Assembly (NCBI GenBank): GCA_965203905.1
Contig: CBDBDQ010000005.1
Span: 256,001-320,000, forward strand
DNA: 64,000 nucleotides
Source of the DNA: Spirochaetia bacterium
GTDB taxonomy: Bacteria; Spirochaetota; Spirochaetia; SZUA-6; Bin103
Reading direction: 5' to 3'
How positions within the stretch are numbered: the stretch's first letter is position 1; each line of letters opens with the position of its first letter. The translations under genes and the position numbers were made by a program. This document shows positions 19,527-31,825 of this stretch, in pieces. The notes below the pieces were generated by a model, which was not told the DNA's origin, did not search any database, and saw nothing but the letters and a program-made list of their open reading frames with translations.

Positions 19527-20537
19527 CTACCCGGCCGGGTCGGCGGCGAGCGCCAGCAGCCGTGCGCTGTGGGCGTTCATCTCCTTCCACGCCTGGGGCA
19601 GGCTCTGCGGTGCTTCCCAATGCTCCCTGGTCGCTTCGTAGAACTTCTTCAGGCGGTAGCAGGGGACGCCGGGGAAGGTGTGGTGCTCGGTGTGCCATTC
19701 CATGTGCCAGTACATGAACGAAGTGAAGGGGTCGACCTTCACCGAACGGCAGCTCTTGCGGAAGTCGTCCGCCTCCGGTTCGCGTCCCACGTGCATGGTG
19801 GCGTGCACCAGGGTGTGGTACCAGCGTGCGCCGTAGAACTGCGGCAGGCTCACCACCACGATCAGAAACCACTCGCCGGCTGCGATCGCCCACACCGCGA
19901 ACGCCACGTGGAGCAGGAACTGCGTGAGCGAGCGCCAGTACGCTTCGCGGCGCTCGCCGTCACTGGCCTCCTGGTACACGTAGCGTTGCCACACGCTGCG
20001 CCGCGGGTTGCCCAGGTAGGGGCGGAAGATCGAGTAGACCTGGTCGTACAGTGCGGTCACCAGGGCGCTGACATCCACAACCTGGAACGCCTGCTGCAGC
20101 ACCTGCTCGGTGGTCTTGACCTTCGGGTGCACGCGCTCGCCCTCGCTGCGGCGGTGCAGCGTGTAGCGGTGGTGGTACTTGTGGCTCATGCGGTAGGTGG
20201 CGAGGTTGGAGTTCCAATGGACCACCCCGAAGATCCGCCCGAACAGGTTGTTGAGCCAGCGCGACCGGAACATGGTGCGATGCGACAGCTCGTGAGTCTG
20301 CGGACCGAAAGCGAACAGGCCGCCGTGCAGGTAGAGCGCCAGCGCCATCAGCACCCACTGGCCGGTGCGGTAGAACCAGTAGCAGAGCGCGCCCGAGGCC
20401 GCCAGCACCGCCAGCACGCCGAGCGAGTGCCACAGACCCTGCAGGTCGCTACGCCGCATGAACCGCGCCAGAAGCTCGCGGTCGATCGGCGGCCGCTTCC
20501 ATTGCACCCTGATCGGGGTGTACGGATAGGAGCTCAT
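19527..20537 (-). CDS. Fatty acid desaturase-family membrane di-iron enzyme
   Basis: Three His boxes HELSH, HKYHH and HTEHH plus transmembrane segments. Confidence 0.88.
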   Translation of the reverse strand: MSSYPYTPIRVQWKRPPIDRELLARFMRRSDLQGLWHSLGVLAVLAASGALCYWFYRTGQWVLMALALYLHGGLFAFGPQTHELSHRTMFRSRWLNNLFGRIFGVVHWNSNLATYRMSHKYHHRYTLHRRSEGERVHPKVKTTEQVLQQAFQVVDVSALVTALYDQVYSIFRPYLGNPRRSVWQRYVYQEASDGERREAYWRSLTQFLLHVAFAVWAIAAGEWFLIVVVSLPQFYGARWYHTLVHATMHVGREPEADDFRKSCRSVKVDPFTSFMYWHMEWHTEHHTFPGVPCYRLKKFYEATREHWEAPQSLPQAWKEMNAHSARLLALAADPAG

Positions 20538-20625
20538 TTCAGCGCCTCAATATACACATCGGCGCGCTGCGTGTCGCCCACCACGGCCGCTGTGCAACCG
20601 CTGTGCCGCCATGGCGAGCGGCTGG

Positions 20626-21495
20626 CTACTCCACCGCGCCCTCGTCCGCGGGTTCGCCTCGCGGCGCTCTCGACAGCAGCCTGGAAAGCGCCGCCACCAC
20701 CAGGAAGATGGCCACGCACACCAGGGCCACCGCCGCACCCGACGCGACGCTGAAGTAGTAGGAGAGATAAAGTCCGACCACGCCCGAGACGATGCCGACT
20801 CCCGCGGCCACCAGCACGGTGTGGTGAAAGCGGCGCGTGATCTGCAGCGCCGCGGCGGCCGGGGCGACCATCAGGGTCACCACCAGTGCGATGCCGATGG
20901 TCTGCAGCGCCACCACGATGGCAAGGGCGATGAGCAGGTACTGCAGATAGGTGAGCGCGGTGCTCTTGAGCCGGAGCGAAACGGCGAACACGCGGTCGAA
21001 GGTGACCACCACCAGCTCCTTGTAGAGCAGCACGACGACCGCGACCACGATGAGCGACACCGCGCCGACCCGTACCAGGTCGGCGTTGGTCACGCTGAGC
21101 AGGTTGCCGAACAGGAAGTGCAGCAGATCCACGGCGAAGTTGCGCGCGGTCGAGATGATGGCGATACCGAGGGCGAACATGCCGGCGTAGACGACCCCCA
21201 CCGCTGCATCCTCGCCGACCCGCGAGCGGTGCACCAGGGTGGCCATGCCCAGCGAGGCGAGGAGGGCGGTGGCCGCAGCCCACCAGAACAGGCGGTTGCG
21301 GTCGGCCCCGCCCAGCAGGTAGCCGACGGCGATGCCCGGCACCAGGGAGTGGGCCAGGGCGGTGCCGATGTAGGACATGCCGCGCAACACGGCGAAGGTG
21401 CCGACCAGGGCGCACACCGATGCCACCATGGTGACGGCGAGCAGGGCCCGGCCCACGAAGGGGTAGGCGAGCGGAGCCAGCAGCAGGTCGATCAT
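20626..21495 (-). CDS. Zn/Mn ABC transporter permease (ZnuB/MntB-like)
   Basis: Start MIDLL; G.FAVLRGMSYIGTALAHS..PG, EDAAVG, LLHFLFGNLL, TFD..FA... Confidence 0.9.
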   Translation of the reverse strand: MIDLLLAPLAYPFVGRALLAVTMVASVCALVGTFAVLRGMSYIGTALAHSLVPGIAVGYLLGGADRNRLFWWAAATALLASLGMATLVHRSRVGEDAAVGVVYAGMFALGIAIISTARNFAVDLLHFLFGNLLSVTNADLVRVGAVSLIVVAVVVLLYKELVVVTFDRVFAVSLRLKSTALTYLQYLLIALAIVVALQTIGIALVVTLMVAPAAAALQITRRFHHTVLVAAGVGIVSGVVGLYLSYYFSVASGAAVALVCVAIFLVVAALSRLLSRAPRGEPADEGAVE

Positions 21496-21496
21496 C

Positions 21497-22309
21497 TCAC
21501 GTCGAGGTGGCGATCGGAAGTTCCGGCGGGCTCTCGGGAACGCCTTCGTCGGTGTCGTTGCGGCCCGGAGAATCGCCGTAGGCGGCGGCCAGATGCTCGG
21601 CCACCAGCACCTGGCCGGGGGGACCGACGGCAATCACCCGCCGATTGAGCAGCATTACCTGTTCGAGGTGGTGCGCGACTGCAAGGTTGTGGGTCGAGAC
21701 CATGACCGCGATGCCCTTGCCCACGGCGTCAAGGGTGGCGGTGAGTTGCGCGCCTGCCTCTGCGTCGAGCCCGGCGTACGGCTCGTCGAGCAGCATGATC
21801 TCCGCCTCTTGCGCCAGGGCGCGGGAGATGAACATGCGCCGCCGCTGGCCACCTGAGAGTTCCCCGATCTGGCGCCGCCGCAAGTCGCTAATCGCGACCC
21901 GCTCCATGGCTTCGGCGACGATCGCGCGGTCACGGCGCCGCAGGAAGCGCCCGTATCCTACGCGTGCGGTGCGCCCCATGGTAACCACGTCCTCCACCGT
22001 CGCTGGAAAACGCCAGTTGAGGTTGGCGTTCTGCTCAATGTAGGCGATGCACACATGGCGCTCCGACTGGCTGCCCGAGACCTTCACCGAGCCCGCCGCT
22101 GGCCGGTGGATACCCGCGATCACCTTGAACAAGGTGCTCTTGCCGGCGCCGTTGGGGCCTACCACGGCGGTGCGTTCGCCGCTCTCCAGACGGAACGAAA
22201 CCCCGTCGAGCGCACAGCGCCCGGCATAGTACGCCCGTACCCCGTTGAGCTCGAGGGTTACCGCACCCGCGACATGGGCCGGCTCACGGCTGCCGCTGCG
22301 GCCCTTCAT
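21497..22309 (-). CDS. Zn/Mn ABC transporter ATP-binding protein (ZnuC/MntA-like)
   Basis: GPNGAGKST, W.FPATVEDVV.MGR, LSGGQ, LLDEP; start uncertain (MKGRS at 22309). Confidence 0.9.
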   Translation of the reverse strand: MKGRSGSREPAHVAGAVTLELNGVRAYYAGRCALDGVSFRLESGERTAVVGPNGAGKSTLFKVIAGIHRPAAGSVKVSGSQSERHVCIAYIEQNANLNWRFPATVEDVVTMGRTARVGYGRFLRRRDRAIVAEAMERVAISDLRRRQIGELSGGQRRRMFISRALAQEAEIMLLDEPYAGLDAEAGAQLTATLDAVGKGIAVMVSTHNLAVAHHLEQVMLLNRRVIAVGPPGQVLVAEHLAAAYGDSPGRNDTDEGVPESPPELPIATST

Positions 22310-22386
22310 CACCGACGCCACGGGAATGAACCGTCGACCATTAGCGCGGACTTTCTGCCTGTTTTCATGACGTTCCACAACATACT

Positions 22387-22407
22387 TCGAGATATCATTA
22401 TCATTAG
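22387..22407 (-). promoter_or_regulatory. Putative Fur-family (Zur-like) operator upstream of znuC-znuB
   Basis: Minus strand CTAATGATAATGATATCTCGA; 16/21 identical to the site upstream of znuA (30416-30436). Confidence 0.55.
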
Positions 22408-22542
22408 TAGCCCGCCCCGGCAACCGCTCGTTTCGACCACCCGGCCGGCGTGGACGCCGCGCCAGCCGAATCGCCAGTTGCCAGCAAATTGCCTACTCCC
22501 AAATTCTCCCCCAATCAACGCCTAAGCACCGAATTTCCTCTT

Positions 22543-22761
22543 ACGAATTCGCGAATCGGCGGACGAATCTGCAGGTTCGCGATTTCGCGATGGATGGGTC
22601 GCATAAGGGATGGCTCTAGAACCGGTGCAATTAATCGTTTTCCTACAATTAATTGTTGAGAATAGTCTGCATCTCGTGCCAGTGAGATCAGGGGGCCAAA
22701 CCGTCAAATTCGCGAATTCGCGTATCAGTCGTAAACCCACAAGAAATTCGCGATTTCGCGA
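22543..22761. repeat. Four tandem TTCGCGA-containing motifs in an AT-rich intergenic region
   Basis: acgaattcgcgaat (22543), ttcgcgatttcgcga (22576), aattcgcgaattcgcg (22707), aattcgcgatttcgcga (22745). Confidence 0.7.
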
Positions 22762-22882
22762 CTTGACCGATAAGAGTGTCATCTCGAGTCTATACAAGCC
22801 TTGGGAACGCAAATCGATGCCTTACAATAGTTTGTGCAAAGATCAAGCATATATGGCGAGGATCGGGGCTCATGTTTTTCAA

Positions 22883-22910
22883 TTGACAAGGTTGCCAGAG
22901 TCCGTACAGT
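22883..22910 (+). promoter_or_regulatory. Putative sigma70 promoter of the permease-hflKC operon
   Basis: TTGACA (22883-22888), 16 nt, TACAGT (22905-22910); GAGGA at 22922. Confidence 0.55.
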
Positions 22911-22942
22911 AGCTCAAATTTGAGGATAGCGATACGGACTGG

Positions 22943-25219
22943 TTGTTGAGCATATTCACCGGATTCTTCGATTTTCTCTGGTCGTCGTTCCTGTTGCTGG
23001 CGCCCATGCTGCTGCTGGGCCTGTTCCTGGCCGGGGTGATTCACGTCATGATTTCGCGGCAGTCCATTCTCCGCTGGCTGCGCCACGACAGCTTGAAGTC
23101 GGTCAGCACGAGCGCGGCGGTCGGAGTGCCGATACCGCTGTGCAGTTGCTCGGTCGTGCCGGTGGTCGCCGAGATGCACCGCAAGGGCGCATCGCGTTCG
23201 TCCTGCATGTCGTTCCTCATCACTGCTCCAGAGACCGGCGCCGACTCGATTCTCATTACCAACGCGTTCTTCGGATTCCTGGCCGCGGTTGCGCGTCCCG
23301 TGATCAGCTTCATCACCGCGGTGGTGGCCGGCATCTTCTGCATCGGCCTGATCCGCGGCCGTCCTGCGCCGCACCACGACCACGACCACGACGATCATGA
23401 CCATGAGCACGACCACCACGGACTCGGTCATGCGGGCCATGACCACGCCGAGCACGAGCCGCTGCTGCCCGGCAGCGACGATTGCTACGTACGGCCCTCG
23501 CAACTGAAGGCAGCCCTGACCGGCTGGGCGCGGAGAACGGTGCAGAGCGTCACCGAGAGGATAGGGCGACGCAAGACCGTCACCTGGGTCAAGCCCGACT
23601 TCTACCGCTCGGCTCCTGTCGCCGAGCAACCCCGCGCCAGCCACAGCGGACCGCCCAATGGTGCCGAGGACCTGGATTTTAAGCACATCATCAAGCACGT
23701 GTTCCGCTACGGGTTCGTCGAGATAGCCGACGACATCCTGTTCTCGCTGCTGGTGGGCGTCGCCCTGGGAGGCGTGCTCTACCTGGTGATACCCAGCGAA
23801 CTGATGGCCAACGAATACGCACGCTGGATCTCCTATCCGATCATGGTGCTGGTGGGGGTGCCACTCTACATCTGCGCCTCGGCGAGCACACCCATCGCCG
23901 CCGCGCTGGTCGCCCGCGGCGTCAGTCCGGGGGCAGCGCTGATCTTTCTCATGACCGGACCGGCTACCAACACCGGTACCATCGCGATCATCGCCAACCA
24001 GTTCGGTGCCCGCTTCGCATCGGTGTATGTGACCGTGGTCATCGTCGTGACCGTCGCGATCGGCATCCTGGTCGACACCCTGGTGCTCGCCGCCGGTGCC
24101 ACCCTCTCGGTCAACCTGGGTGCCGTCCAAGCTCCGGCCATCGAGATCCTGGAATGGACCGGTGCCTTCCTCCTCATCGCCCTGATTATCTGGCGGTTCC
24201 AGGCCGGCGCCCTGAAGAGCGGTTACCAGGATCTGGTGTCCAACCTGCGGACCTTCTCCCCGCCCTGGAAGCGCCTCTTGCGCCGTCTGACCCGCGGGCG
24301 GCGGCTGGCCGGAGTGATCTCTCCCGCTGCGCCGCTGGGCATGTCGCTCTGGATTCTGCTGATCGTGGCGTTTCTGGCCACCGGCTTTACCGCGGTGCCT
24401 CCGGCGGCGGTGGGCTACGGCCGGCTGTTCGGTGCGGTGGTCTGGCGCGACCTGCCACCGGGCCTGCACTACCTGGCGCCGCGGCCGCTGGCCAGCGTCG
24501 ACCACTGGCCGATCCGGGAAGTGAAGTCGGTCACCAACGATGTGCCGTTCGAGTACCTGTCGGGCGAGTTGAACCTGCTGTCGCTCACGGTGAACGTGCA
24601 GTACCGGGTGCGGGATCCCTACGTCTATCACTACCGGACAGAGGATCCGGAGCGGGCGATTACCGACAGCGTGCGCGACGAGGTGCGTGCGTTTGTGGCC
24701 GTCGGCGACCTGAATCAGCTGCTCAACGTCCGGCGGGAGGAGTTGGAAGCGACGATTCACCGGTTGTTCTCGGGCTCCTCGGACTCGACGGCCCCGGTGC
24801 TGGATGCAGTCGAACTGATCAAGGTGAATCTCGTGGCCGTCCAGCCGATCGCTGAGACGATGAGCGCGTTTCGGGAAATCTCCAGCTCCCAGGAGGACCG
24901 CGAACGCATCATCGTCGACGCGCAGCGGTTCATGGTCACCTTGATTCCGAGGGCCCACGGTAACGCGGTGTACGAGGTCGAGCAGGCGGCCGGCGAGGCG
25001 TTCCGGAACGTGACCGCGACCGCCGCGGAGGCCGATGCCATCCGCGTGGTGTCGCGGGCGGTGCAAGCGGCCCCCGACGTGCTCCAGAGCATGCTCTGGC
25101 GCGAGAAACTGGAAACGGCCCTCGCCGGCGACAACTACAAGATCATCGTCCCGAGTCAGGACAGCCTGGCCAAGGTGGCGCTGTGGAAGCGATCGGCGGA
25201 GGAGCACACGGACCGATGA
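22943..25219 (+). CDS. SO_0444/DUF318 (ArsP-like) metal permease with His-rich loop, fused to a C-terminal HflK-type SPFH domain
   Basis: VPIPLCSCSVVP, TAPETGADSI, HHDHDHDDHDHEHDHH loop, GVPLYICASASTPIAA, GPATN; then GFTAVPP..VG...LFG....LPPGLHY, LSGELNLL..VNVQYRV, AFREISS.QEDRER..AQ...IPRA.G.A. Confidence 0.88.
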   Translation: MLSIFTGFFDFLWSSFLLLAPMLLLGLFLAGVIHVMISRQSILRWLRHDSLKSVSTSAAVGVPIPLCSCSVVPVVAEMHRKGASRSSCMSFLITAPETGADSILITNAFFGFLAAVARPVISFITAVVAGIFCIGLIRGRPAPHHDHDHDDHDHEHDHHGLGHAGHDHAEHEPLLPGSDDCYVRPSQLKAALTGWARRTVQSVTERIGRRKTVTWVKPDFYRSAPVAEQPRASHSGPPNGAEDLDFKHIIKHVFRYGFVEIADDILFSLLVGVALGGVLYLVIPSELMANEYARWISYPIMVLVGVPLYICASASTPIAAALVARGVSPGAALIFLMTGPATNTGTIAIIANQFGARFASVYVTVVIVVTVAIGILVDTLVLAAGATLSVNLGAVQAPAIEILEWTGAFLLIALIIWRFQAGALKSGYQDLVSNLRTFSPPWKRLLRRLTRGRRLAGVISPAAPLGMSLWILLIVAFLATGFTAVPPAAVGYGRLFGAVVWRDLPPGLHYLAPRPLASVDHWPIREVKSVTNDVPFEYLSGELNLLSLTVNVQYRVRDPYVYHYRTEDPERAITDSVRDEVRAFVAVGDLNQLLNVRREELEATIHRLFSGSSDSTAPVLDAVELIKVNLVAVQPIAETMSAFREISSSQEDRERIIVDAQRFMVTLIPRAHGNAVYEVEQAAGEAFRNVTATAAEADAIRVVSRAVQAAPDVLQSMLWREKLETALAGDNYKIIVPSQDSLAKVALWKRSAEEHTDR

Positions 25220-26145
25220 ACAGATCGGGGAAGCTGAGGAACAGAGTCGTAGCGGTGGTCGTGGTGCTGGCAATAACGGTGGTCGCAGCCGACAGCTTCT
25301 ACATCATCGACGAGGCGCAGCAGGGAGTACTGACCCATTTCGGCAAGATCCGGCTTCCCGTTCGGCAGCCCGGCCTGCACCTCAAGTTTCCGCGTCCCAT
25401 CGCAAAGATCTACAAGGTCGACCGGCGTATCCATACCCTGGACGGAATGGTCCAGGAGCTGATTACCGAAGACCAGAAGAACGTGCTGGTGGACGGGTAC
25501 CTGCTGTGGCAGGTCTCCGATCCGGTCAGGTACGTGGAAGCGATCCGCACCGAGGCCAATGCCGTCGCCCGCATACGCGACCTGTACCTTTCCAGCAGCG
25601 GCATCGTGATCAGCAACAAGGCACGCGACGCCTTCGTCAGCCTGGGGCTGCTGCGCGAGGAGCAGCACATCGCGGCCCAGGAAATCCTCGACCGGATCAG
25701 GCCGGTTGCCGCCGCCGAGTACGGCATCGACATCATCAAGGCCGGGATCATCGAGTACACGTTGCCACCCGAGAACCGGCCGAGCGTCATCCAGCGCATG
25801 ATCTCCGAGCGCGCCCGCATCGCGGCCCGCTACCGCAGCGAGGGCGAAGAGATGGCACTCCGCATCGAGGCCCTGGCGATCAACGAACACGAGAGGCTCA
25901 TGGCCAACGCCCATGCGGAGGCGACGGCCATTCTCGGCCAGGCGGAGGCCGAGGCAATGGCGCTGCTGGGAGCCGCGTACCGGCAGGACCCCGATTTCTA
26001 CAAGTTCATCCGCGCACTCGACAGCTACGACGCGATCATCGACGACCGCACCACCCTCCTGCTGCCGGCCGACAACGAGCTGTTCATGTATCTGGACGCC
26101 AACCGCATTCCGGCGCCGGCGGAAGTAGCACGCGCGGATGAGTGA
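25216..26145 (+). CDS. hflC: HflC-like SPFH protein
   Basis: Single N-terminal TM, QQGVLTHFGK...PGLHLK.P, ITEDQKNVLVD, LP.EN..SV.QRMISER.R.A..YRSEG, AYRQDPDFYKFIR.L.SY; ATGA overlap with the upstream gene. Confidence 0.88.
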   Translation: MNRSGKLRNRVVAVVVVLAITVVAADSFYIIDEAQQGVLTHFGKIRLPVRQPGLHLKFPRPIAKIYKVDRRIHTLDGMVQELITEDQKNVLVDGYLLWQVSDPVRYVEAIRTEANAVARIRDLYLSSSGIVISNKARDAFVSLGLLREEQHIAAQEILDRIRPVAAAEYGIDIIKAGIIEYTLPPENRPSVIQRMISERARIAARYRSEGEEMALRIEALAINEHERLMANAHAEATAILGQAEAEAMALLGAAYRQDPDFYKFIRALDSYDAIIDDRTTLLLPADNELFMYLDANRIPAPAEVARADE

Positions 26146-27565
26146 CGCAACCCAGCTACCGCCGAGCACGCGCATCATCCATGCCGTGTTCGACTATGCC
26201 GGGAAGCACAAGACCCGGATTCTGGCGCTGGGCGTCGCGCTGGCATTGCTGATGCTGGTGGCCAGCGGTTTCTACATCGTCAAGAAGGAAGAGCGCGGTG
26301 TTCGGGTGCGCTTCGGGAAAGTGGTCACGGCAGAGGTCGAACCCGGTTTGCACTACCGTATCCCCCTGATCGAGCGCGTACACGTGCGCAAGGTGATGCG
26401 GATCGAACGCCAGCTCATCGCCAGCCAGGGGGGCGCTAGCGGTTCTGCCGCGTTCACCATCCTGTCCGGCGATACCAATCTCCTGGAGATCGACCTGGTC
26501 GTGCAGTACCGCATCGAAAACCTGCGGGACTACCTGTATGCGTCGTCGGATCCACACCGCCTGCTCGCCATGGTGGCGCGCGAGCGACTGGTCGACATCG
26601 TGGGCAGGAACTTCGTCGACCTGATCTTCACCCAGAACCGCGACTACATTCAGCGTCACCTGACGGAGGGGACCGCCTTCCACCTCGAACAGTACGGCAT
26701 CGGCGTGGAGATCGTCTCGCTGAACATCGTCGACGTGCGCCCGATCGCGGAAACCGTTGCCGCCTTCCGGGACGTCAACGACGCCCTCGCCGAGCGCATG
26801 CAGGCGGTGAGCAATGCCCACCGCCTGCGGGAACAGCTCCTGGCCCGCTCCCGCGGTCAGGCGGAAGCGCTGCTGCTGAGCGCGAAGGCGAAGGCGGTGG
26901 AGCGTATGGTACAGGCGCGGGCCAGCTCCACCGCGTTCTCGGCGCTGCTCGGCGAGTACCGCGTGCAGCCGGAACAGGTGGCGATCACACGCTACTGGCA
27001 GCGCATGCGGACCATCTTCGCCGAGGCGCACCTGGCGGCGGTCAATCCGGATGCCGAATCGACCATCGACATCAACATGCTGGACGGCATCGCGGCGTAT
27101 CCGCCTACGGCCGTGCCGCCGGACGTGATGGCGGCTGCCGTGCCCGACGAATCGGCGGATCGGCCGCTGCTGACCACGCTGCGACCGCCGGGAATGCATA
27201 CGATCGAGACCGTGGACGCGGATAAGCCGCTGCTCGACGGGCAGTTCCACGAGCCGCTCGCGGAACGCGACCACGGTGCCGCGCACCCGAGGTCGCTGCT
27301 GTTCGACACCCCGTCGATCTTTCGCCACCGGCATGTCGTCACCCGCCGGATCCAGCCAGCCGCGCCGACGCCGGCGGGGGTGCCGAGCGCCGCGGTCGAA
27401 CCTGCGGACCAGGTGAAGGACGCCGCCGCGGCCGAACCGGCGGCGGCGGAGCCTGCCGCGGAACCGGCGCCAACCGATCCGGAACCAACGCCGCAGAGCA
27501 AGGAACAGCCCTCGGTGGAGGCTCAGCGCGTATCGAACAAGGGTGATTATGGCACGAATGAGTGA
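26138..27565 (+). CDS. hflK: HflK-like SPFH protein with long Pro/Ala/His-rich C-terminal tail
   Basis: SGFYIV..EERGV.VRFGK...EPGLHY, LSGDTNLL.IDLVVQYRI, V.AAFRDV..A, ARSRGQA, EY...PE..ITR.Y...M; tail with AAAEP repeats. Confidence 0.87.
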   Translation: MSDATQLPPSTRIIHAVFDYAGKHKTRILALGVALALLMLVASGFYIVKKEERGVRVRFGKVVTAEVEPGLHYRIPLIERVHVRKVMRIERQLIASQGGASGSAAFTILSGDTNLLEIDLVVQYRIENLRDYLYASSDPHRLLAMVARERLVDIVGRNFVDLIFTQNRDYIQRHLTEGTAFHLEQYGIGVEIVSLNIVDVRPIAETVAAFRDVNDALAERMQAVSNAHRLREQLLARSRGQAEALLLSAKAKAVERMVQARASSTAFSALLGEYRVQPEQVAITRYWQRMRTIFAEAHLAAVNPDAESTIDINMLDGIAAYPPTAVPPDVMAAAVPDESADRPLLTTLRPPGMHTIETVDADKPLLDGQFHEPLAERDHGAAHPRSLLFDTPSIFRHRHVVTRRIQPAAPTPAGVPSAAVEPADQVKDAAAAEPAAAEPAAEPAPTDPEPTPQSKEQPSVEAQRVSNKGDYGTNE

Positions 27566-28727
27566 GCGTCCGGCACGGCGGCGGGGCTCGGTGGCGGCGC
27601 TCTGCCTTGTTCTGCTGGCAACTTCCCTGCCGGCGGCCGCGGCGCCGGGGATAACCGCCAACGCGATCGTGTTCGGGCAGAGCGCGAGTCTGACGGGGCC
27701 GAACCGGAAGCTCGGGATCAACTACCGCGCCGGCATCGAAGCCGCCTTCAGCGAGCGCAACCGGCGCGGCGGCGTTGGCGGCAGGCTGCTCGAAATCCGC
27801 TCACTGGATGACTCCTACGAGCCGGAGCATGCGGCCGCCAACGCCCGCTGGTTCGTGGAAAGGAACGACGTGTTTGCCGTCATCGGCGGAGTAGGTACGC
27901 CTACCGCCAAGCGCATCGCTCCGATCCTGCGGGCGGCGCAAGTACCCTTCGTCGGTCCCTTTACCGGGGCCGACTTCCTGCGTAGCGCCGAGCGCTTTCC
28001 CAACGTGGTCAACCTGCGCGCCGGGTATCTCGACGAGACGCGCGTCCTGGTCGACTTCATGATCCGCGAGTTGGGAACCCGGCGCTTCGGGATCATCTAC
28101 CAGGACGATGCCTTCGGCCGCTCGGTCCTCAGAAACTTCCACTCCGTGCTCGACAGCTACGACCTTCCGCTGCTGGCTCGATCCACCTTTTCGCGCAACA
28201 CGCATGCGGTCCATACCAGCCTGTTCACCCTGGCCAAGGCCGATCTGGACGCTCTGCTGCTGGTGGGGAGCTATCCCGTCAATTCGCTGATCATCAACCT
28301 TGCCCAGGCCCTGGGACATGAGTACGTGATGGCCAACCTTTCGTTCGTCGACTCGCAAGCCCTGCGGGAGCTGGTGGAAGTCCCGAGCGAGCGCATCCTG
28401 GTATCCGAGGTAGTACCCGACCCGCAGGACACCAGCCGGGCGCTGGTGCGACGCTTCCGGAACGCCATGGCGGCGCACCACCCGGAGACGGATGACCTGA
28501 TCGACGCGGTGTCCCTGGAGGGATACGTCCTCGGCAGGTTCGTGATCGACGTACTGGACCGGATGGAAGTCGAGTTGACCCGTGAACGTTTTCTGAGCAC
28601 CGCGCTGTCGCCCGATCCGGTTGCCATCGATGACTGGACCATTCGCTTCGAACCCGGAACCAATGTCGGCTCCGATTACATCAGATTGACCAATCTGGGC
28701 GGCGATGATGACACACAAGGGGAGTAG
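27558..28727 (+). CDS. Periplasmic binding protein, Leu/Ile/Val (type 1 PBP) family, orphan
   Basis: Signal peptide, FGQSASLTGP..LG...G..AAF..N..GGVGGR...DDSYEP, GGVGTPT, NLRAGY.DE, YQDDAFG, SLEGY. Confidence 0.85.
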   Translation: MSERPARRRGSVAALCLVLLATSLPAAAAPGITANAIVFGQSASLTGPNRKLGINYRAGIEAAFSERNRRGGVGGRLLEIRSLDDSYEPEHAAANARWFVERNDVFAVIGGVGTPTAKRIAPILRAAQVPFVGPFTGADFLRSAERFPNVVNLRAGYLDETRVLVDFMIRELGTRRFGIIYQDDAFGRSVLRNFHSVLDSYDLPLLARSTFSRNTHAVHTSLFTLAKADLDALLLVGSYPVNSLIINLAQALGHEYVMANLSFVDSQALRELVEVPSERILVSEVVPDPQDTSRALVRRFRNAMAAHHPETDDLIDAVSLEGYVLGRFVIDVLDRMEVELTRERFLSTALSPDPVAIDDWTIRFEPGTNVGSDYIRLTNLGGDDDTQGE

Positions 28728-28730
28728 CGG

Positions 28731-29219
28731 TTGAAGAAGCTGGAGGAATTCTCCACCGAGGAAACCGGCGAGGAGTGGTTACGCGAACTCTATAAGGTCA
28801 TAACCATGCGGCGCAGTTCGATGTTCCGGCTGATCACCGAGTCGGTACGGCTGCTGCTGTTCGGCAATGGCGGCGGCGTGGCGCTCATCATCGGGTTCAT
28901 GAGCGCCTTCGGCGGCGCTGACACCGCCTCCTTCCACTGGCTCGCGCTGCTGACGCTGGTCCTGTTCGCCTGCGGAACCCTGGTCGCGGCGCTCACCATG
29001 CTCCTGGTGACGGCGGTGTCGGTGCAGGAAGCGCACGGAGCGGAAAAAGGACTGAAACGGTTCGTCGACGGTGATACGGACCGCACCCAGACGCTGTTCA
29101 CCATCGAGCAACATACCTTTCGACTCGCCGATTACGCCACGCTCTGCGGGATTGTCAGCACCGGCGCGTTCCTGCTCGGCGGCCTCGGCAGCATCGTATT
29201 GCTGATCGTGTTTTTCTAA
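28731..29219 (+). CDS. Hypothetical membrane protein (about 3 TM)
   Basis: Starts 3 nt after the PBP stop with a GGAG RBS; hydrophobic segments LLFGNGGGVALIIG, WLALLTLVLFACG, FLLGGLGSIVLLIVFF. Confidence 0.7.
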   Translation: MKKLEEFSTEETGEEWLRELYKVITMRRSSMFRLITESVRLLLFGNGGGVALIIGFMSAFGGADTASFHWLALLTLVLFACGTLVAALTMLLVTAVSVQEAHGAEKGLKRFVDGDTDRTQTLFTIEQHTFRLADYATLCGIVSTGAFLLGGLGSIVLLIVFF

Positions 29220-29234
29220 ATCCGCACGGACCAT

Positions 29235-29322
29235 CCGCGAGTTAGGCCACCCACTCGCGGCCTCGAAGCCAAGCGGTTCAAGTGATTCGCCGCATGGCGG
29301 CAGCGGAGCGACCGCCATGCGG
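29235..29322. terminator. Two hairpins between convergent genes
   Basis: ccgcgagt...actcgcgg and ccgcatggcgg...ccgccatgcgg inverted repeats. Confidence 0.5.
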
Positions 29323-29333
29323 TTGGCGCACGA

Positions 29334-30398
29334 TCAAGGTGCCAGTGCGGCCACGATCCGTTCGACGTTGGTGCGCATGAAGTCCTGATAGGTGGCGGCA
29401 GGGCCATCGGGTTCGCTCAGCGAACCGGTGTAGATGGCCACCAGCTCAATGCCGAGGTCGTCGGCAACGGATTCTGCGATTTGCGGACTCACGGTGGTGC
29501 CGACGAAGATCGCGGGAGTGCCGTGTTCAGCGATCGTCTCCCGCAGTTGCGCCAGATGGCGCGCGGACGGCTCGGACGCCGTGCTGACGCCGGGTACGAT
29601 CGTCTCCAACAACCGGAAGCCGTAACGCTCGGCGAAGTAGCCCATTACGTCATGATCGGTCACCAGGAGGCGACGCGCTGCGGGGACGGCGCTCACCTGG
29701 TTCCGGATCCATGCATCCAGCTCATGCAACTCGCTGCTCAGCGCGGCCGCGCGGGCGGCGTAGCCGGCGGCGTGCTCGGGGTCCACCTCGGAGAGTGCCT
29801 CCGCGATTTCGTCCGTCCACCGGGCGACCAGCGTGGGATCCATCCACACGTGCGCATCGAATTCTCCATGATCGTGTTCCTCGTCGTGGTGGTCTTCCTC
29901 CTCGTCGTGGTGATCTTCCTCGCCGTCTTCGTCTTCTTCCTCGTCGTGGTGGTCTTCGTCGGCGTCTTCGTCTTCCTCGTCGTGATGGTCTTCGTCACCC
30001 TCCTCGTGCTCCTCTTCCTCGGCATCATCCATCCTGCGGAGGGGCAGGTGCGCGGAGACCTCCACCAGGAGACGCGGCTCGGCGGTCTCCAGCAGGCTGC
30101 CGAGGAAGTCGGCCTCGAGCCCGGCGCCGTTGGCAAACACGACATCGGCATCGGCAACCTGGCGCAGGTCACGTGGAGTCGGGTGAAACACGTGCGGATC
30201 GACGCCCGGAGCCAGCATCACGTACAAAGAGATCCGGTCCCCGCCAACACCGGCGACGATGTCGCCGACAATGGTGGTGGTCGCTACCACGGCCACCTGG
30301 TCGCCCGCAGGCTGCTCGCCCGCCGGTGAAGCGAAGAGGCAGGCGGCTGCAAGTGCGAGCACGGGGACCAGCAGCGCGGTCTTGGAAGAGAAGAACAT
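29334..30398 (-). CDS. Zn ABC transporter substrate-binding protein (ZnuA/AdcA-like) with His/Asp/Glu-rich loop
   Basis: VVATTTIVGD, GVDPH.F.PTP, NGAGLE, DAHVWMDP, LVTDHD..GYFA.RYG, EPSA; long acidic/His loop. Confidence 0.92.
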   Translation of the reverse strand: MFFSSKTALLVPVLALAAACLFASPAGEQPAGDQVAVVATTTIVGDIVAGVGGDRISLYVMLAPGVDPHVFHPTPRDLRQVADADVVFANGAGLEADFLGSLLETAEPRLLVEVSAHLPLRRMDDAEEEEHEEGDEDHHDEEDEDADEDHHDEEEDEDGEEDHHDEEEDHHDEEHDHGEFDAHVWMDPTLVARWTDEIAEALSEVDPEHAAGYAARAAALSSELHELDAWIRNQVSAVPAARRLLVTDHDVMGYFAERYGFRLLETIVPGVSTASEPSARHLAQLRETIAEHGTPAIFVGTTVSPQIAESVADDLGIELVAIYTGSLSEPDGPAATYQDFMRTNVERIVAALAP

Positions 30399-30415
30399 GC
30401 AGACAGGCTATTATA

Positions 30416-30436
30416 TCGCGAGGTCGTTATCAATAG
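30416..30436 (-). promoter_or_regulatory. Putative Fur-family (Zur-like) operator upstream of znuA
   Basis: Minus strand CTATTGATAACGACCTCGCGA immediately followed by a perfect TATAAT (30415-30410). Confidence 0.55.
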
Positions 30437-30508
30437 ACCATCGTGCTTTGCGCGCTTTGACATGCTTTGACCGCGACTCTCCGGCACGGTAGGTTTCCAC
30501 GCCAAGCC

Positions 30509-31825
30509 ATGCCCTTCGCCGCCGACTCTCCCCTTCCCCGCATGCGCCACGTCGACGTGATCCCGGTCGAGCTGCAGGGCCGGCAGGCGTTCTACCTGCG
30601 CGACCCGCTGGCGTTCGCCCCGGAGCCGCTGGTGCTCGGCACCGCGGGCTTGTTCATCGTGTCCCAACTCGACGGCCGGAACAGCGCCGCTCAGGTGCGC
30701 AGCGCCGCGTTGCGGCAGTTTCCGGACAGCGACATCGGCCTGGCGGAGATCCGCGGGTTGCTCGCCGTGCTGCGCAAGGGCTGCTACCTGGACGACCACG
30801 TGGCTGCGGCGCGCATAAACCGGGTACGCGCCGAGTTCGAGGGTGCAGAGGTGCGCCCGGCGTGGCACGCCGGCGCGGCTTACCCGCACGACCCGCGAGA
30901 GCTGGCGGCGATGCTCGACCGCTTTTTCGCCGCCGCGCCGGCACAGGCCGCGGAGGCCGCAGTGGCGGCGGATTCCACGCACCAGCTTGCCGCCGTCCTG
31001 TGTCCGCATATCGACCTGCGCGCCGGCGGCGAGATCTATCCTCCCGCCTTCCGGGCGCTGGCCGCGGCCGCCGCCGGGGAACCGCCCGTCGAGCTCTACG
31101 TGATCCTCGGGGTGGCCCACCACGGCGGCACCGAGCCGGGCAAGAGCTTCGCCATCGCCACCGACAAGCACTACGCTACCCCGCTCGGGCAGGCGCCCGC
31201 AGACCGCCGCCTGATCGAAGAGTGGTCGCGACGCGCCGGCCGCGACGTCACCGAGCGGCAGTGGCTGCACCGCACCGAGCATTCGGTGGAGTTTCCGCTG
31301 CTGTTTCTGCAGTACATCCAGGCCCAGGCGGACTTGCCGCGGTACACGGTGGTGCCGGTCCTGCTTGGCGGCGTGGACCACTACGTGCACGCCGGGGAGG
31401 ATCCGCTGCAGGCGCCGGAGGTCGCCGCCGAGCTGGCCGCATTGCGGGCGGCGGTGAACGCCAGCGGCAAGCGCGCGCTCTATCTGTTGAGCGTGGATCT
31501 GGCCCACATCGGTCCGAAGTTCGGCCACGGCGAGCGGATCGACGATGCCGCCGCGGCCGCCTGCGAGCAGGCCGACCGCGAACTGCTGGGCTACGCCGAG
31601 CACTTCGACGCTACCGGCTTCACCCGCTCCTTGCACGCCGACCGCAACGGCCGCAACGTGGACGCCGTCTCCGGCCTGTTCTCGCTCTACCCGCTGCTGG
31701 CCGGCGCCGAGTGCCGCGGTTCCCTGCTCAGCTACGGCCAGAACCGCCAGCCCGACACCGGCTCGCTGGTCAGCTACGCCAGCATGGCCTTCTACCGCAC
31801 CGCCACGGAGCCGGACCATCACTGA
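30509..31825 (+). CDS. AmmeMemoRadiSam system protein B (MEMO1 family) with N-terminal extension
   Basis: RPAWHAG.AYP, PHIDL..G, ILGVAH, TPLG, HRTEHSVEF..LFLQ, SVDLAH.G, VSYAS. Confidence 0.87.
   Translation: MPFAADSPLPRMRHVDVIPVELQGRQAFYLRDPLAFAPEPLVLGTAGLFIVSQLDGRNSAAQVRSAALRQFPDSDIGLAEIRGLLAVLRKGCYLDDHVAAARINRVRAEFEGAEVRPAWHAGAAYPHDPRELAAMLDRFFAAAPAQAAEAAVAADSTHQLAAVLCPHIDLRAGGEIYPPAFRALAAAAAGEPPVELYVILGVAHHGGTEPGKSFAIATDKHYATPLGQAPADRRLIEEWSRRAGRDVTERQWLHRTEHSVEFPLLFLQYIQAQADLPRYTVVPVLLGGVDHYVHAGEDPLQAPEVAAELAALRAAVNASGKRALYLLSVDLAHIGPKFGHGERIDDAAAAACEQADRELLGYAEHFDATGFTRSLHADRNGRNVDAVSGLFSLYPLLAGAECRGSLLSYGQNRQPDTGSLVSYASMAFYRTATEPDHH

Follow-up and report, generated by a model that had tools for sequence, protein, structure and literature searches.

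A permease::HflK fusion heads a conserved five-gene cassette in a bacterial zinc locus, pointing to an undescribed organisation of metal transport in the membrane

Why should a metal permease be joined in one reading frame to a protein of the HflK family, and what would such a fusion do inside a zinc-transport locus? The question arises from a window of 64 000 nucleotides (C5:256001-320000) of a Spirochaetia genome. A preliminary description of the window had proposed that an SPFH cage is repurposed here to enclose or cluster a secondary metal transporter. The features concerned are as follows.

20626-22423, minus strand: znuC-like ATPase and znuB-like ABC-3 permease genes, divergent from the cassette
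22506-22870, unstranded: copy of a dispersed repeat, about 350 bp (blastn of 22424-22942 against the genome)
22883-22910, plus strand: promoter-like TTGACA-16-TACAGT (consensus match, 33 nt ahead of the fusion ORF)
22943-25219, plus strand: fusion ORF, 758 aa
22943-24190, plus strand: permease domain of the SO_0444/ArsP_1 type, residues 1-416 (profile matches, nine hydrophobic segments)
24191-24400, plus strand: K/R-rich linker and HflK-type membrane anchor (hydropathy, conserved linker residues)
24401-25219, plus strand: HflK-like SPFH domain, K' (TIGR01933 and solved-chain match)
25183-26145, plus strand: HflC-like protein C', 320 aa (one N-terminal TM segment, Band_7 match)
26138-27565, plus strand: second HflK-like protein, K'', 475 aa (one N-terminal TM segment)
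27543-28727, plus strand: LivJ-like periplasmic type-I binding protein with signal peptide, 394 aa (Peripla_BP_6)
28731-29219, plus strand: orphan membrane protein, 162 aa (three hydrophobic segments)
29334-30398, minus strand: ZnuA/AztC-like zinc-binding protein, convergent with the cassette

The ORF listing agreed with the description in placing five abutting or overlapping genes at 22943-29219, all on the plus strand. In the 758-aa product of the first gene, residues 6-377 matched Pfam ArsP_1 with 157.5 bits. Residues 13-416 aligned to positions 2-348 of the 351-position NCBIfam profile for SO_0444 family Cu/Zn efflux transporters (NF033936), and their 319.4 bits exceed its curated equivalog threshold of 300 bits. 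All the landmarks attributed to this DUF318/ArsP-like permease were present, namely the CSC and YIC motifs (PLCSCS, residues 65-70; YICASAS, 309-315), a loop spanning residues 138-255 (23354-23707), with His concentrated at about 144-172, and the junction to an HflK-type SPFH domain. All 12 aligned fusions have C67-S68-C69; the Cys-Ser-Cys motif is described in 10.1101/2022.07.06.499078. The linker, with nine K/R between residues 425 and 454, is probably cytoplasmic and leads to an anchor at about residues 466-486; K' would face the periplasm. K' scored 105.8 bits against hflK TIGR01933 (residues 502-740), under the cut-off of 159.4, and residues 473-736 aligned with the HflK chains of E. coli structures (E 1.2e-14). 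Of the two Pfam profiles suggested for checking the ORF, ArsP_1 was recovered as above and Band_7 gave no match on this fusion copy at E ≤ 0.01; PF03773 and PF01145 occurred together in 114 of the best 120 fusion homologues. Public records name permease fusions 'SO_0444 family Cu/Zn efflux transporter', which hides the architecture.

C' scored 169.5 bits against TIGR01932, above its cut-off of 134.4, and K'', whose last 150 or so residues form a tail rich in Pro, Ala and Glu, scored 150.8 bits against TIGR01933, again under 159.4. The cassette has the layout of HflK, in which an N-terminal anchor precedes the SPFH domain and an hflC gene lies next door. The binding protein matched Peripla_BP_6 with 143.4 bits, and its best solved relative was 4kv7 (E 5e-47). 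No Pfam or NCBIfam family matched the 162-aa membrane protein, which carries a conserved N-terminal EEWLRExYKV stretch and had 301 homologues; among the 120 listed, lengths were 159-164 aa and names 'hypothetical' or lacking.

The fear that the fusion was an assembly artefact or unique to this contig proved groundless, the fusion being widespread. All five genes occurred in identical order on a single strand in 75 of 80 related loci, and the remaining five end within the cassette, cut by contig ends. Median identities across these loci were 62 % for the fusion, 69 % for C' (range 61-73 %), 55 % for K'', 58 % for the binding protein and 64 % for the small protein; K'' was found in 78 loci, the binding protein in 76 and the 162-aa protein in 75. 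The last two proteins had been suggested as possible accessory parts, but they are not optional, since both were present in all 75 loci extending that far. The permease::HflK' cassette points to a previously undescribed organisation of metal transport in the membrane.

The cassette has spread widely, the 80 related loci belonging to MAGs assigned to about ten phyla. Many of the isolate labels appear to be those of sponge-symbiont MAG sets, one of them being APA_bin (PMC11706023). This hints that sponge symbionts share a selective pressure acting on metal handling.

The three SPFH genes are not the housekeeping ones of this genome, which has a separate canonical pair, hflK (301.1 bits) and hflC (314 bits), at C5:2490051-2492188. 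The window contains no ftsH, as had been stated, and both ftsH genes lie far away at C5:4056105 and C5:4603580. In the phylogenetic tree that had been called for, the split between K and C was supported at 100, C' grouped with HflC proteins, and K', C' and K'' each stood on long branches apart from their housekeeping relatives. These results bear on a reading in which the cage formed by the trio would hold FtsH, placing the fused permease beside the protease so that its level could be reset fast as metal supply changes. The position of all three proteins in the HflK/HflC branch would suit this, as would the K' domains linked to other transporters (below), which pass the hflK cut-off with 242, 208 and 189 bits. 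Two MAGs also keep a role with FtsH in consideration, since G001 (labelled Latescibacterota) had no hflK-family match outside the cassette trio, and the matches of G002 that pass the cut-off all sat in transporter-linked trios. The retained canonical pair, the long branches, the low score of K' and the lack of a linked ftsH in the window argue against FtsH-coupled turnover, which we consider quite doubtful.

The K' domain was not confined to ArsP-type permeases. Its 51 long relatives comprised 33 ArsP-type, 16 CDF and two P-type ATPase proteins. A search with the CDF fusion returned 364 proteins at E ≤ 1e-20, both domains being present in 119 of the best 120, and such genes were found in named organisms, e.g. 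Kouleothrix aurantiaca and Sedimentibacter. Public records annotate the CDF::HflK fusions as 'FtsH protease activity modulator HflK'. CDF::HflK' was followed by HflC' and HflK'' in all five loci with enough flank, and G002 possesses a set of P1B-ATPase::HflK', HflC' and HflK'', so that the transporter::K'-C'-K'' layout recurs with three transporter families. The same HflC'-HflK'' partners after CDF and P1B fusions therefore indicate a general, undescribed module. This recurrence lends strong comparative support to the idea that a metal transporter is hard-wired into a ring of SPFH proteins; the original metal-complex interpretation is thereby supported in part, the accessory status of the last two proteins having fallen. 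In the CDF and P1B-ATPase fusions the cytoplasmic C-terminus of the transporter would meet the cytoplasmic N-terminus of HflK, a junction that is consistent with the established topology of both families. Metal export is the normal role of both.

The locus itself had been described as a Zn/Mn ABC locus, and Zn-type ABC genes were indeed found on both sides of the cassette. The ABC-3 permease (20626-21633, minus strand; PF00950, 225.1 bits), the AztA/MntA-like ATPase (21497-22423, minus strand; true start probably near 22300) and the ZnuA/AztC-like protein (PF01297, 274.5 bits; long His/Asp/Glu-rich loop) together have the make-up of a ZnuABC-type importer, that is, a cluster A-I protein with such a loop, an ABC-3 permease and an ATPase. 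A complete fusion was present in two of 40 relatives. The cassette lies between znuA and znuC in the window genome and in G011; G012 and G006, of the same genus, have contiguous znuA-znuC-znuB and no cassette. The uninterrupted operon in these cassette-free genomes identifies the cassette as a lateral insertion. Among G000, G004 and G005, cassette proteins were 45-68 % identical and housekeeping HflK/HflC 27-39 %.

The dispersed repeat, which holds TCGCGA palindromes and ACAATTAATTGT, takes up most of the sequence separating znuC from the fusion gene; blastn against the genome returned 16 further pieces matching at 66-79 %, with as many as 13 stacked over 22506-22870. Promoter-like sites were not above chance (two sites against 1.4 expected from shuffles), and no Zur box was identified upstream of the window's fusion gene. 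Across the related loci a Zur-like pattern occurred in 7/80 upstream regions and in 3/80 AT-rich control windows, in a post hoc and weak test.

Metal-transport genes also occurred in the wider neighbourhoods. On the same strand as the cassette, a znuA gene ended ≤ 800 bp upstream in 12/80 loci and a ZIP gene started ≤ 600 bp downstream in 35/75 complete loci. A Zur-like gene lay within 10 kb in 5/80 loci and a CusA/CzcA-type RND pump in 37/80; the pump was directly upstream on the same strand in ten, nine of which also had the downstream same-strand ZIP gene. The znuABC, ZIP and CzcBA neighbours point to zinc homeostasis.

The pumps raise the possibility of detoxifying Cu/Zn efflux, in which the permease would export excess metal, the ring would stabilise or cluster it, and CzcBA would carry the metal across the outer membrane. 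This would agree with the NF033936 score, with the ten directly upstream HME-RND pumps and with the use of exporter families in the sister fusions. It would also agree with SO_0444, which adjoins a ZntR-like regulator, is required by cells growing under ZnSO4 or CuCl2 stress and has been proposed to act in efflux (PMC3219624). Efflux leaves unexplained, however, the obligatory periplasmic binding protein, the ZIP importer genes downstream and the insertion in or next to znuABC operons, and no MerR/ZntR-type regulator was seen among the approximately 20 flanking ORFs scanned in the window. Nor does it account for Pseudomonas aeruginosa, whose zinc-limitation-induced hflK/hflC paralogues beside a P-type ATPase, mentioned in the preliminary description, are indeed published. 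Loss of znuA raised PA2437-PA2439, the neighbours of the P-type ATPase HmtA, 9- to 14-fold (PMC4542158). Zn depletion made PA2435, PA2438 and PA2439 more abundant, with p-values that ranged by method from about 0.01 to 0.18 (PMC11761036). We consider detoxifying efflux unlikely and lean, by roughly two to one, towards uptake or allocation over it.

Our preferred reading, with a probability of about 0.5, is that the cassette is a laterally acquired module of zinc-group metal homeostasis with a ring-borne permease, expressed when zinc is scarce. The cytoplasmic C-terminus of the permease would pass through the basic linker and the HflK-type anchor into periplasmic K', which would build a hetero-oligomeric ring of the HflK/C type with C' and K''. 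Such a ring would carry several permease copies, their number set by the K':K'' ratio, with the LivJ-type binding protein and the 162-aa protein as obligatory partners. The cassette lies inside the znuACB operon; it is most likely expressed with the zinc-acquisition genes at low zinc, and most likely serves dedicated metal transport, not housekeeping FtsH control. This reading is weakened because the permease passes the cut-off of a family founded on SO_0444, a proposed efflux protein (PMC3219624), because its CDF and P1B sister transporters are normally exporters, because RND pumps lie within 10 kb in 37 of 80 loci and because the window's fusion gene has no identified Zur box.

The exporter-type transporter families and the uptake neighbours would be reconciled if the transporter were a caged exporter. 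HflK and HflC form a closed periplasmic vault, as in the solved structures matched here (7vhp, 7wi3 and 9cz1), and zinc might under scarcity be pumped from the cytoplasm into that vault, loading the binding protein or exported clients with no loss to the bulk periplasm. This would fit the zinc-depletion induction in P. aeruginosa, but HmtA is reported as an importer (PMC4542158), and the conserved residues of the binding protein resemble a small-molecule, LivJ-type pocket with a single HxxH. We hold a caged exporter to be as unlikely as detoxifying efflux.

A fourth possibility, by analogy with TRAP/TTT systems, is uptake of an organic or chelated ligand in place of the free ion, in which the LivJ-type protein would hand an amino-acid-like metallophore or organometal compound to the ArsP-type permease. 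The ArsP family includes organoarsenical carriers (10.1101/2022.07.06.499078), the cassette's binding protein belongs to the amino-acid/small-molecule type, and the three-part layout is invariant. Yet the cassette lacks any protein of the TRAP or TTT families, its frequent neighbours included no genes for metallophore synthesis, and hydropathy leaves the small protein almost without a periplasmic face; chelate uptake seems to us the least probable of these readings.

The role of bacterial SPFH assemblies beyond HflK/C-FtsH is a long-standing question, and a covalent fusion directly names an SPFH client protein. The occurrence of three metal-transporter families with the same K'-C'-K'' set argues for a functional rule, not an accident. 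A bolder and rather improbable idea is that HflK/C-type vaults are a general chassis for metal transporters, three unrelated families of which would have been joined to HflK so as to move metal into or out of a closed compartment of membrane and periplasm, here a zinc hand-over chamber for the dedicated binding protein under scarcity; if this were true, such vaults would not be FtsH regulators alone. Tractable test systems are offered by P. aeruginosa PA2434-PA2439 and by the CDF::HflK genes of Kouleothrix aurantiaca and Sedimentibacter.

Among known systems, TRAP and TTT transporters likewise pair a large permease with a co-encoded small membrane protein and a binding protein in the periplasm. 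None of the three corresponding cassette proteins belongs to the DctPQM or TctABC families, the likeness being one of analogy only; membership was rejected, the binding protein being Peripla_BP_6, the permease ArsP_1 and the small protein without a family. In the E. coli HflK/HflC-FtsH complex (7vhp, 7wi3, 9cz1), HflK aligns with both K' and K'', and HflC with C'; all have an N-terminal anchor, then the SPFH domain, and adjacent genes. The cassette differs in having three subunit types instead of two, one of them fused to a nine-segment permease, in K' and K'' falling under the hflK cut-off, in lacking linked ftsH or hflX, and in a genome that retains its own canonical pair. Shewanella oneidensis SO_0444 resembles the cassette permease in NF033936 score, CSC motif and second-half Cys motif, but stands alone at about 350 aa beside its ZntR-like regulator, whereas the cassette permease is fused to SPFH and has an obligatory binding protein and a zinc-uptake operon setting. 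The CDF::HflK fusions have the K'-C'-K'' order in common with the cassette; their CDF membrane domain is without the usual cytoplasmic C-terminal domain and, unlike the cassette, their loci are without the binding protein and the 162-aa protein. P. aeruginosa PA2434-PA2439, likened here from published descriptions, resembles the cassette in that a heavy-metal transporter adjoins three HflK/HflC-family genes; this cluster is up in zinc depletion, its transporter is of another family and its genes are unfused. The P1B-ATPase set of G002 is the fused form of that same layout.

The cassette comprised five overlapping or abutting ORFs on one strand of the window:

22943-29219, + strand: the complete five-gene cassette
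Gene 1, + strand: fusion of 758 aa in a single open frame, a permease part followed by an HflK-like SPFH part (K')
Gene 2, + strand: HflC-like subunit (C'), TIGR01932 at 169.5 bits, over the cut-off
Gene 3, 26138-27565, + strand: second HflK-like subunit (K''), 150.8 bits, slightly under the cut-off
Gene 4, + strand: Peripla_BP_6 (LivJ-type) binding protein with a signal peptide
Gene 5, + strand: membrane protein of 162 aa, matched by no family

The preliminary description had proposed that gene 1 joins a permease with CSC and YIC motifs and a His-rich loop to an HflK-type SPFH domain, and family searches bore this out. Residues 6-377 matched Pfam ArsP_1 (157.5 bits) and residues 13-416 the NCBIfam family NF033936, 'SO_0444 family Cu/Zn efflux transporter' (319.4 bits; curated cut-off 300); PLCSCS was located at residues 65-70 and YICASAS at residues 309-315, together with the His-rich loop. 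Residues 502-740 matched hflK TIGR01933 at 105.8 bits, under the cut-off of 159.4, and solved chains of Escherichia coli HflK matched residues 473-736 (E 1.2e-14); Pfam Band_7 gave no report for the SPFH part. A hydropathy script, the sole basis for the topology, predicted nine hydrophobic segments in the permease, followed by a K/R-rich linker (nine K/R between residues 425 and 454), one membrane segment and the SPFH domain. Combined with the known orientation of HflK in the membrane, this pattern predicts a cytoplasmic linker and a periplasmic SPFH domain. K'' ended in a low-complexity tail of approximately 150 aa (residues ~330-475) rich in Pro, Ala and Glu.

Of the 8000 candidates scored in a word-indexed search with the fusion, 719 proteins reached E ≤ 0.001. 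The 120 top-ranking ones were 738-860 aa long with 60-100 % identity; query coverage was at least 95 % in all but one of them, 114 contained both PF03773 and PF01145, and those that had been named were recorded as 'SO_0444 family Cu/Zn efflux transporter'. Scanning one genome per species for the locus gave 249 loci, and the best 80 were retained for comparison. In 75 of these the order of the five genes was identical and all lay on a single strand, and the remaining five loci stopped inside the cassette; median identity to the window was 62 % for the fusion, 69 % for the HflC-like, 55 % for the HflK-like, 58 % for the binding and 64 % for the small protein. The full-length homologues and fixed gene order rule out an assembly or gene-calling artefact, and the fusion is not unique to this contig. 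The same fixed order shows the binding protein and the small protein, earlier thought to be possible accessory parts, to be core parts of the cassette. The 162-aa protein had 301 homologues; the 120 of them listed were 159-164 aa in length, had no Pfam domain and were either 'hypothetical' or without a name. In one locus (L074, 14616-17899), a gap of approximately 3.3 kb lay between the HflK-like gene and a partial match to the binding protein (42 % identity), whose gene may be interrupted at this locus. An apparent triple fusion including ZIP (protein P0024) was rejected, since the Pfam ZIP label falls on an extra-long His loop. The tree of the fusion was shallow, its rows being labelled with about ten phyla and requiring 14 label changes against a minimum of nine; the labels are those of the submitters and near-identical rows sometimes bear different ones, so that the phylum count is approximate, and some labels are probably inconsistent.

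The SPFH genes of the cassette were not the genome's only hflK and hflC. A canonical pair (301.1 and 314.2 bits, respectively) was present at C5:2490051-2492188 on the same contig, and two ftsH genes (C5:4056105 and C5:4603580) lay megabases away from the window. Phylogenetic analysis alongside housekeeping HflK and HflC, as had been suggested, separated K-type from C-type subunits with a support of 100 and placed K', K'' and C' each on long branches. With one housekeeping HflK in the tree, the transporter-linked K' and K'' formed a clade (support 94); when three were included the branching was not resolved (supports of 2-83), and a single origin of all of them is not claimed. A third adjacent SPFH gene pair of the window's genome, G000 (430 and 321 aa; G000:C5:3304453-3306707), formed its own long branch apart from HflK and HflC. 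In a metagenome-assembled genome labelled Latescibacterota (G001), the hflK family model matched three proteins, all of them the cassette's trio, and found no separate housekeeping hflK.

As first described, the cassette lies inside a Zn-type ABC locus, flanked on the left by an ABC-3 permease and ATPase and on the right by a ZnuA/AztC-like protein carrying a long His/Asp/Glu loop, all on the - strand. Two of 40 relatives possessed the full fusion, namely a genome of the same genus (G011, 89 % identical) and one of the same family (G018); by rank, this corresponded to 1/10 same-genus, 1/13 same-family and 0/17 same-order genomes. The G018 fusion (L174, G018:C1:1563090-1565366, - strand) was found in three separate pieces, one with an internal TAA, and is either a decaying copy or the product of assembly errors. 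In two other genomes of the genus (G012 and G006), znuA, znuC and znuB formed an uninterrupted run on a single strand; the window and G011 had the cassette between znuA and znuC, on the opposite strand. In G011 a gene for a 350-aa multi-pass membrane protein and a GPP34-like gene (L180, 14922-15974, - strand) separated the cassette from znuA. The window lacks both genes at this position; the insertion thus ends differently on its right side in the two genomes. Comparison between the window's genome, G004 and G005 gave identities of 27-39 % for housekeeping HflK and HflC, and of 45-68 % for K'', C' and the fusion. No integrase or transposase was found within the inserted segment. Judged on gene order and sequence identities, the cassette is a lateral insertion and its SPFH genes are paralogues.

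Zinc-related genes also neighboured the cassette elsewhere. In 12 of the 80 loci, a same-strand znuA gene ended no more than 800 bp before the cassette, and 23 loci had a znuA gene within 10 kb. A same-strand ZIP-family gene began no more than 600 bp after the cassette in 35 of the 75 complete loci, and five of the 80 had a Zur-like gene within 10 kb. This neighbourhood speaks for a role in zinc homeostasis. A CusA/CzcA-type RND pump (1054.5 bits) was present within 10 kb in 37/80 loci, which counts against a reading as pure uptake; it was directly upstream in 10 loci, nine of which had the ZIP gene downstream. GPP34 (Golgi phosphoprotein 3-like) genes occurred near the cassette in 11/80 loci (for example, L078 17430-18941 and L180 15859-16575), with four matches elsewhere in the window's genome; a 2025 paper links this family to sponge symbiosis (PMC11706023). 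Transporter::SPFH fusions seem to be enriched in metagenome-assembled genomes associated with sponges.

The 519-bp spacer 5' of the fusion (22424-22942) consisted largely of a single copy of an intergenic repeat, approximately 350 bp long and dispersed through the genome, with paired TTCGCGAnTTCGCGA palindromes; blastn detected 16 more pieces matching it in the genome (66-79 % identity), and Rfam had no match. Copies included:

22506-22870 of the window: copy 5' of the fusion
G000:C5:250304-250627: copy elsewhere in the genome
G000:C5:3286667-3287019: copy elsewhere in the genome
G000:C5:5799845-5800199: copy elsewhere in the genome

The TCGCGA palindromes and ACAATTAATTGT in this spacer belong to the repeat and were therefore ruled out as regulator sites. 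No convincing Zur box was found 5' of the window's fusion gene, where the region was poorly conserved relative to G011, and an Rfam search of 20000-31000 gave nothing relevant. Fur-family-type AT-rich palindromes preceded the cassette in several loci labelled alphaproteobacterial and also occurred close to znuA genes in the neighbourhood. The pattern GTTATANTATAAC, chosen after viewing the regions, matched 7/80 upstream regions with up to two mismatches, against 3/80 AT-rich control windows, and these matches are only suggestive of Zur-like sites.

The SPFH part alone (window:24350-25216) was searched against 1.84 billion representatives, giving 2459 matches at E ≤ 0.001. Among the 150 best listed, 51 proteins of at least 480 aa with the SPFH match starting after residue 200 were examined, and blastp against reference domains assigned their N-terminal parts to ArsP-type permeases (33), CDF transporters (16) and P-type ATPases (2), in agreement with Pfam scans of 26 and 25 of them (ArsP_1 in 23 and 9, Cation_efflux in 1 and 15, E1-E2_ATPase in 1). 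Three unrelated metal-transporter families are thus joined at their C-termini to an HflK anchor:

L088 5520-11055 (G002:C1:523519-529054), - strand: P1B-ATPase::HflK set
L093-L095, L097 and L099: CDF::HflK loci (protein P0160 and 363 relatives)

Downstream of the ATPase fusion (1013 aa; TIGR01525 at 555.9 bits, with a CPC motif; HflK domain at 207.7 bits) came genes for an HflC-like (220.1 bits) and an HflK-like (238.5 bits) protein, and then an unrelated gene of 170 aa; a TonB-dependent receptor gene adjoins the set. G002 also carried the SO_0444 cassette, and every above-cut-off hflK match in this genome belonged to the ATPase-linked trio. Six metagenome loci contained the full CDF::HflK fusion, and in all five with a readable flank HflC-like and then HflK-like genes followed 3' on the same strand. 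All three types of transporter::HflK fusion are accompanied by an HflC' and an HflK'' of their own. The CDF fusion is common: 364 of 8000 candidates reached E ≤ 1e-20, and 119 of the best 120 had both domains. Its sole name in public records is 'FtsH protease activity modulator HflK', including those for Sedimentibacter sp. and Kouleothrix aurantiaca, and it extends to monoderm lineages (Sedimentibacter, as well as entries with Chloroflexota and Actinobacteria labels). The CDF part consisted of the membrane domain alone, lacking the usual cytoplasmic C-terminal domain, and no ZT_dimer match was obtained among the 25 members scanned. By established topology, the C-termini of CDF transporters and P1B-ATPases are cytoplasmic.

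Weighing the neighbouring genes together with the published zinc-depletion data for Pseudomonas aeruginosa and the SO_0444 phenotype, we therefore give a probability of about 0.5 to the cassette being a transporter of zinc-group metals that is tethered to a ring and acts together with zinc-acquisition genes, in which K', C' and K'' would assemble as the ring tethering the permease. As to direction, uptake or allocation is rated more likely than detoxifying efflux; SO_0444 itself, the founder of NF033936, is required when cells are stressed with ZnSO4 or CuCl2, and an efflux function was proposed for it (PMC3219624). The boldest reading that the evidence permits, in which the permease pumps zinc from the cytoplasm into a periplasmic space closed by the SPFH vault under scarcity, appears improbable.

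The literature searched, covering main texts, contained no description of SPFH-transporter fusions or of the five-gene cassette. An unfused layout of HmtA plus trio was sought in 151 genomes from the order that includes genome G046, where generic P1B-ATPases dominated the matches. What is already known is the families of the cassette's parts and the P. aeruginosa cluster, which is in print and is not characterised there. The suggested Pseudomonas parallel is in print: according to PMC4542158, the SPFH genes PA2437, PA2438 and PA2439 were upregulated 14.4-, 10.6- and 9.0-fold, respectively, and the P-type ATPase HmtA (PA2435) 5.6-fold in a znuA mutant, the PA2434-PA2439 cluster having a weak putative Zur site, and zinc depletion likewise raised PA2435, PA2438 and PA2439 in proteomics (PMC11761036). 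This cluster, compared with the cassette by its published description, resembles it in setting three SPFH genes beside a metal transporter.
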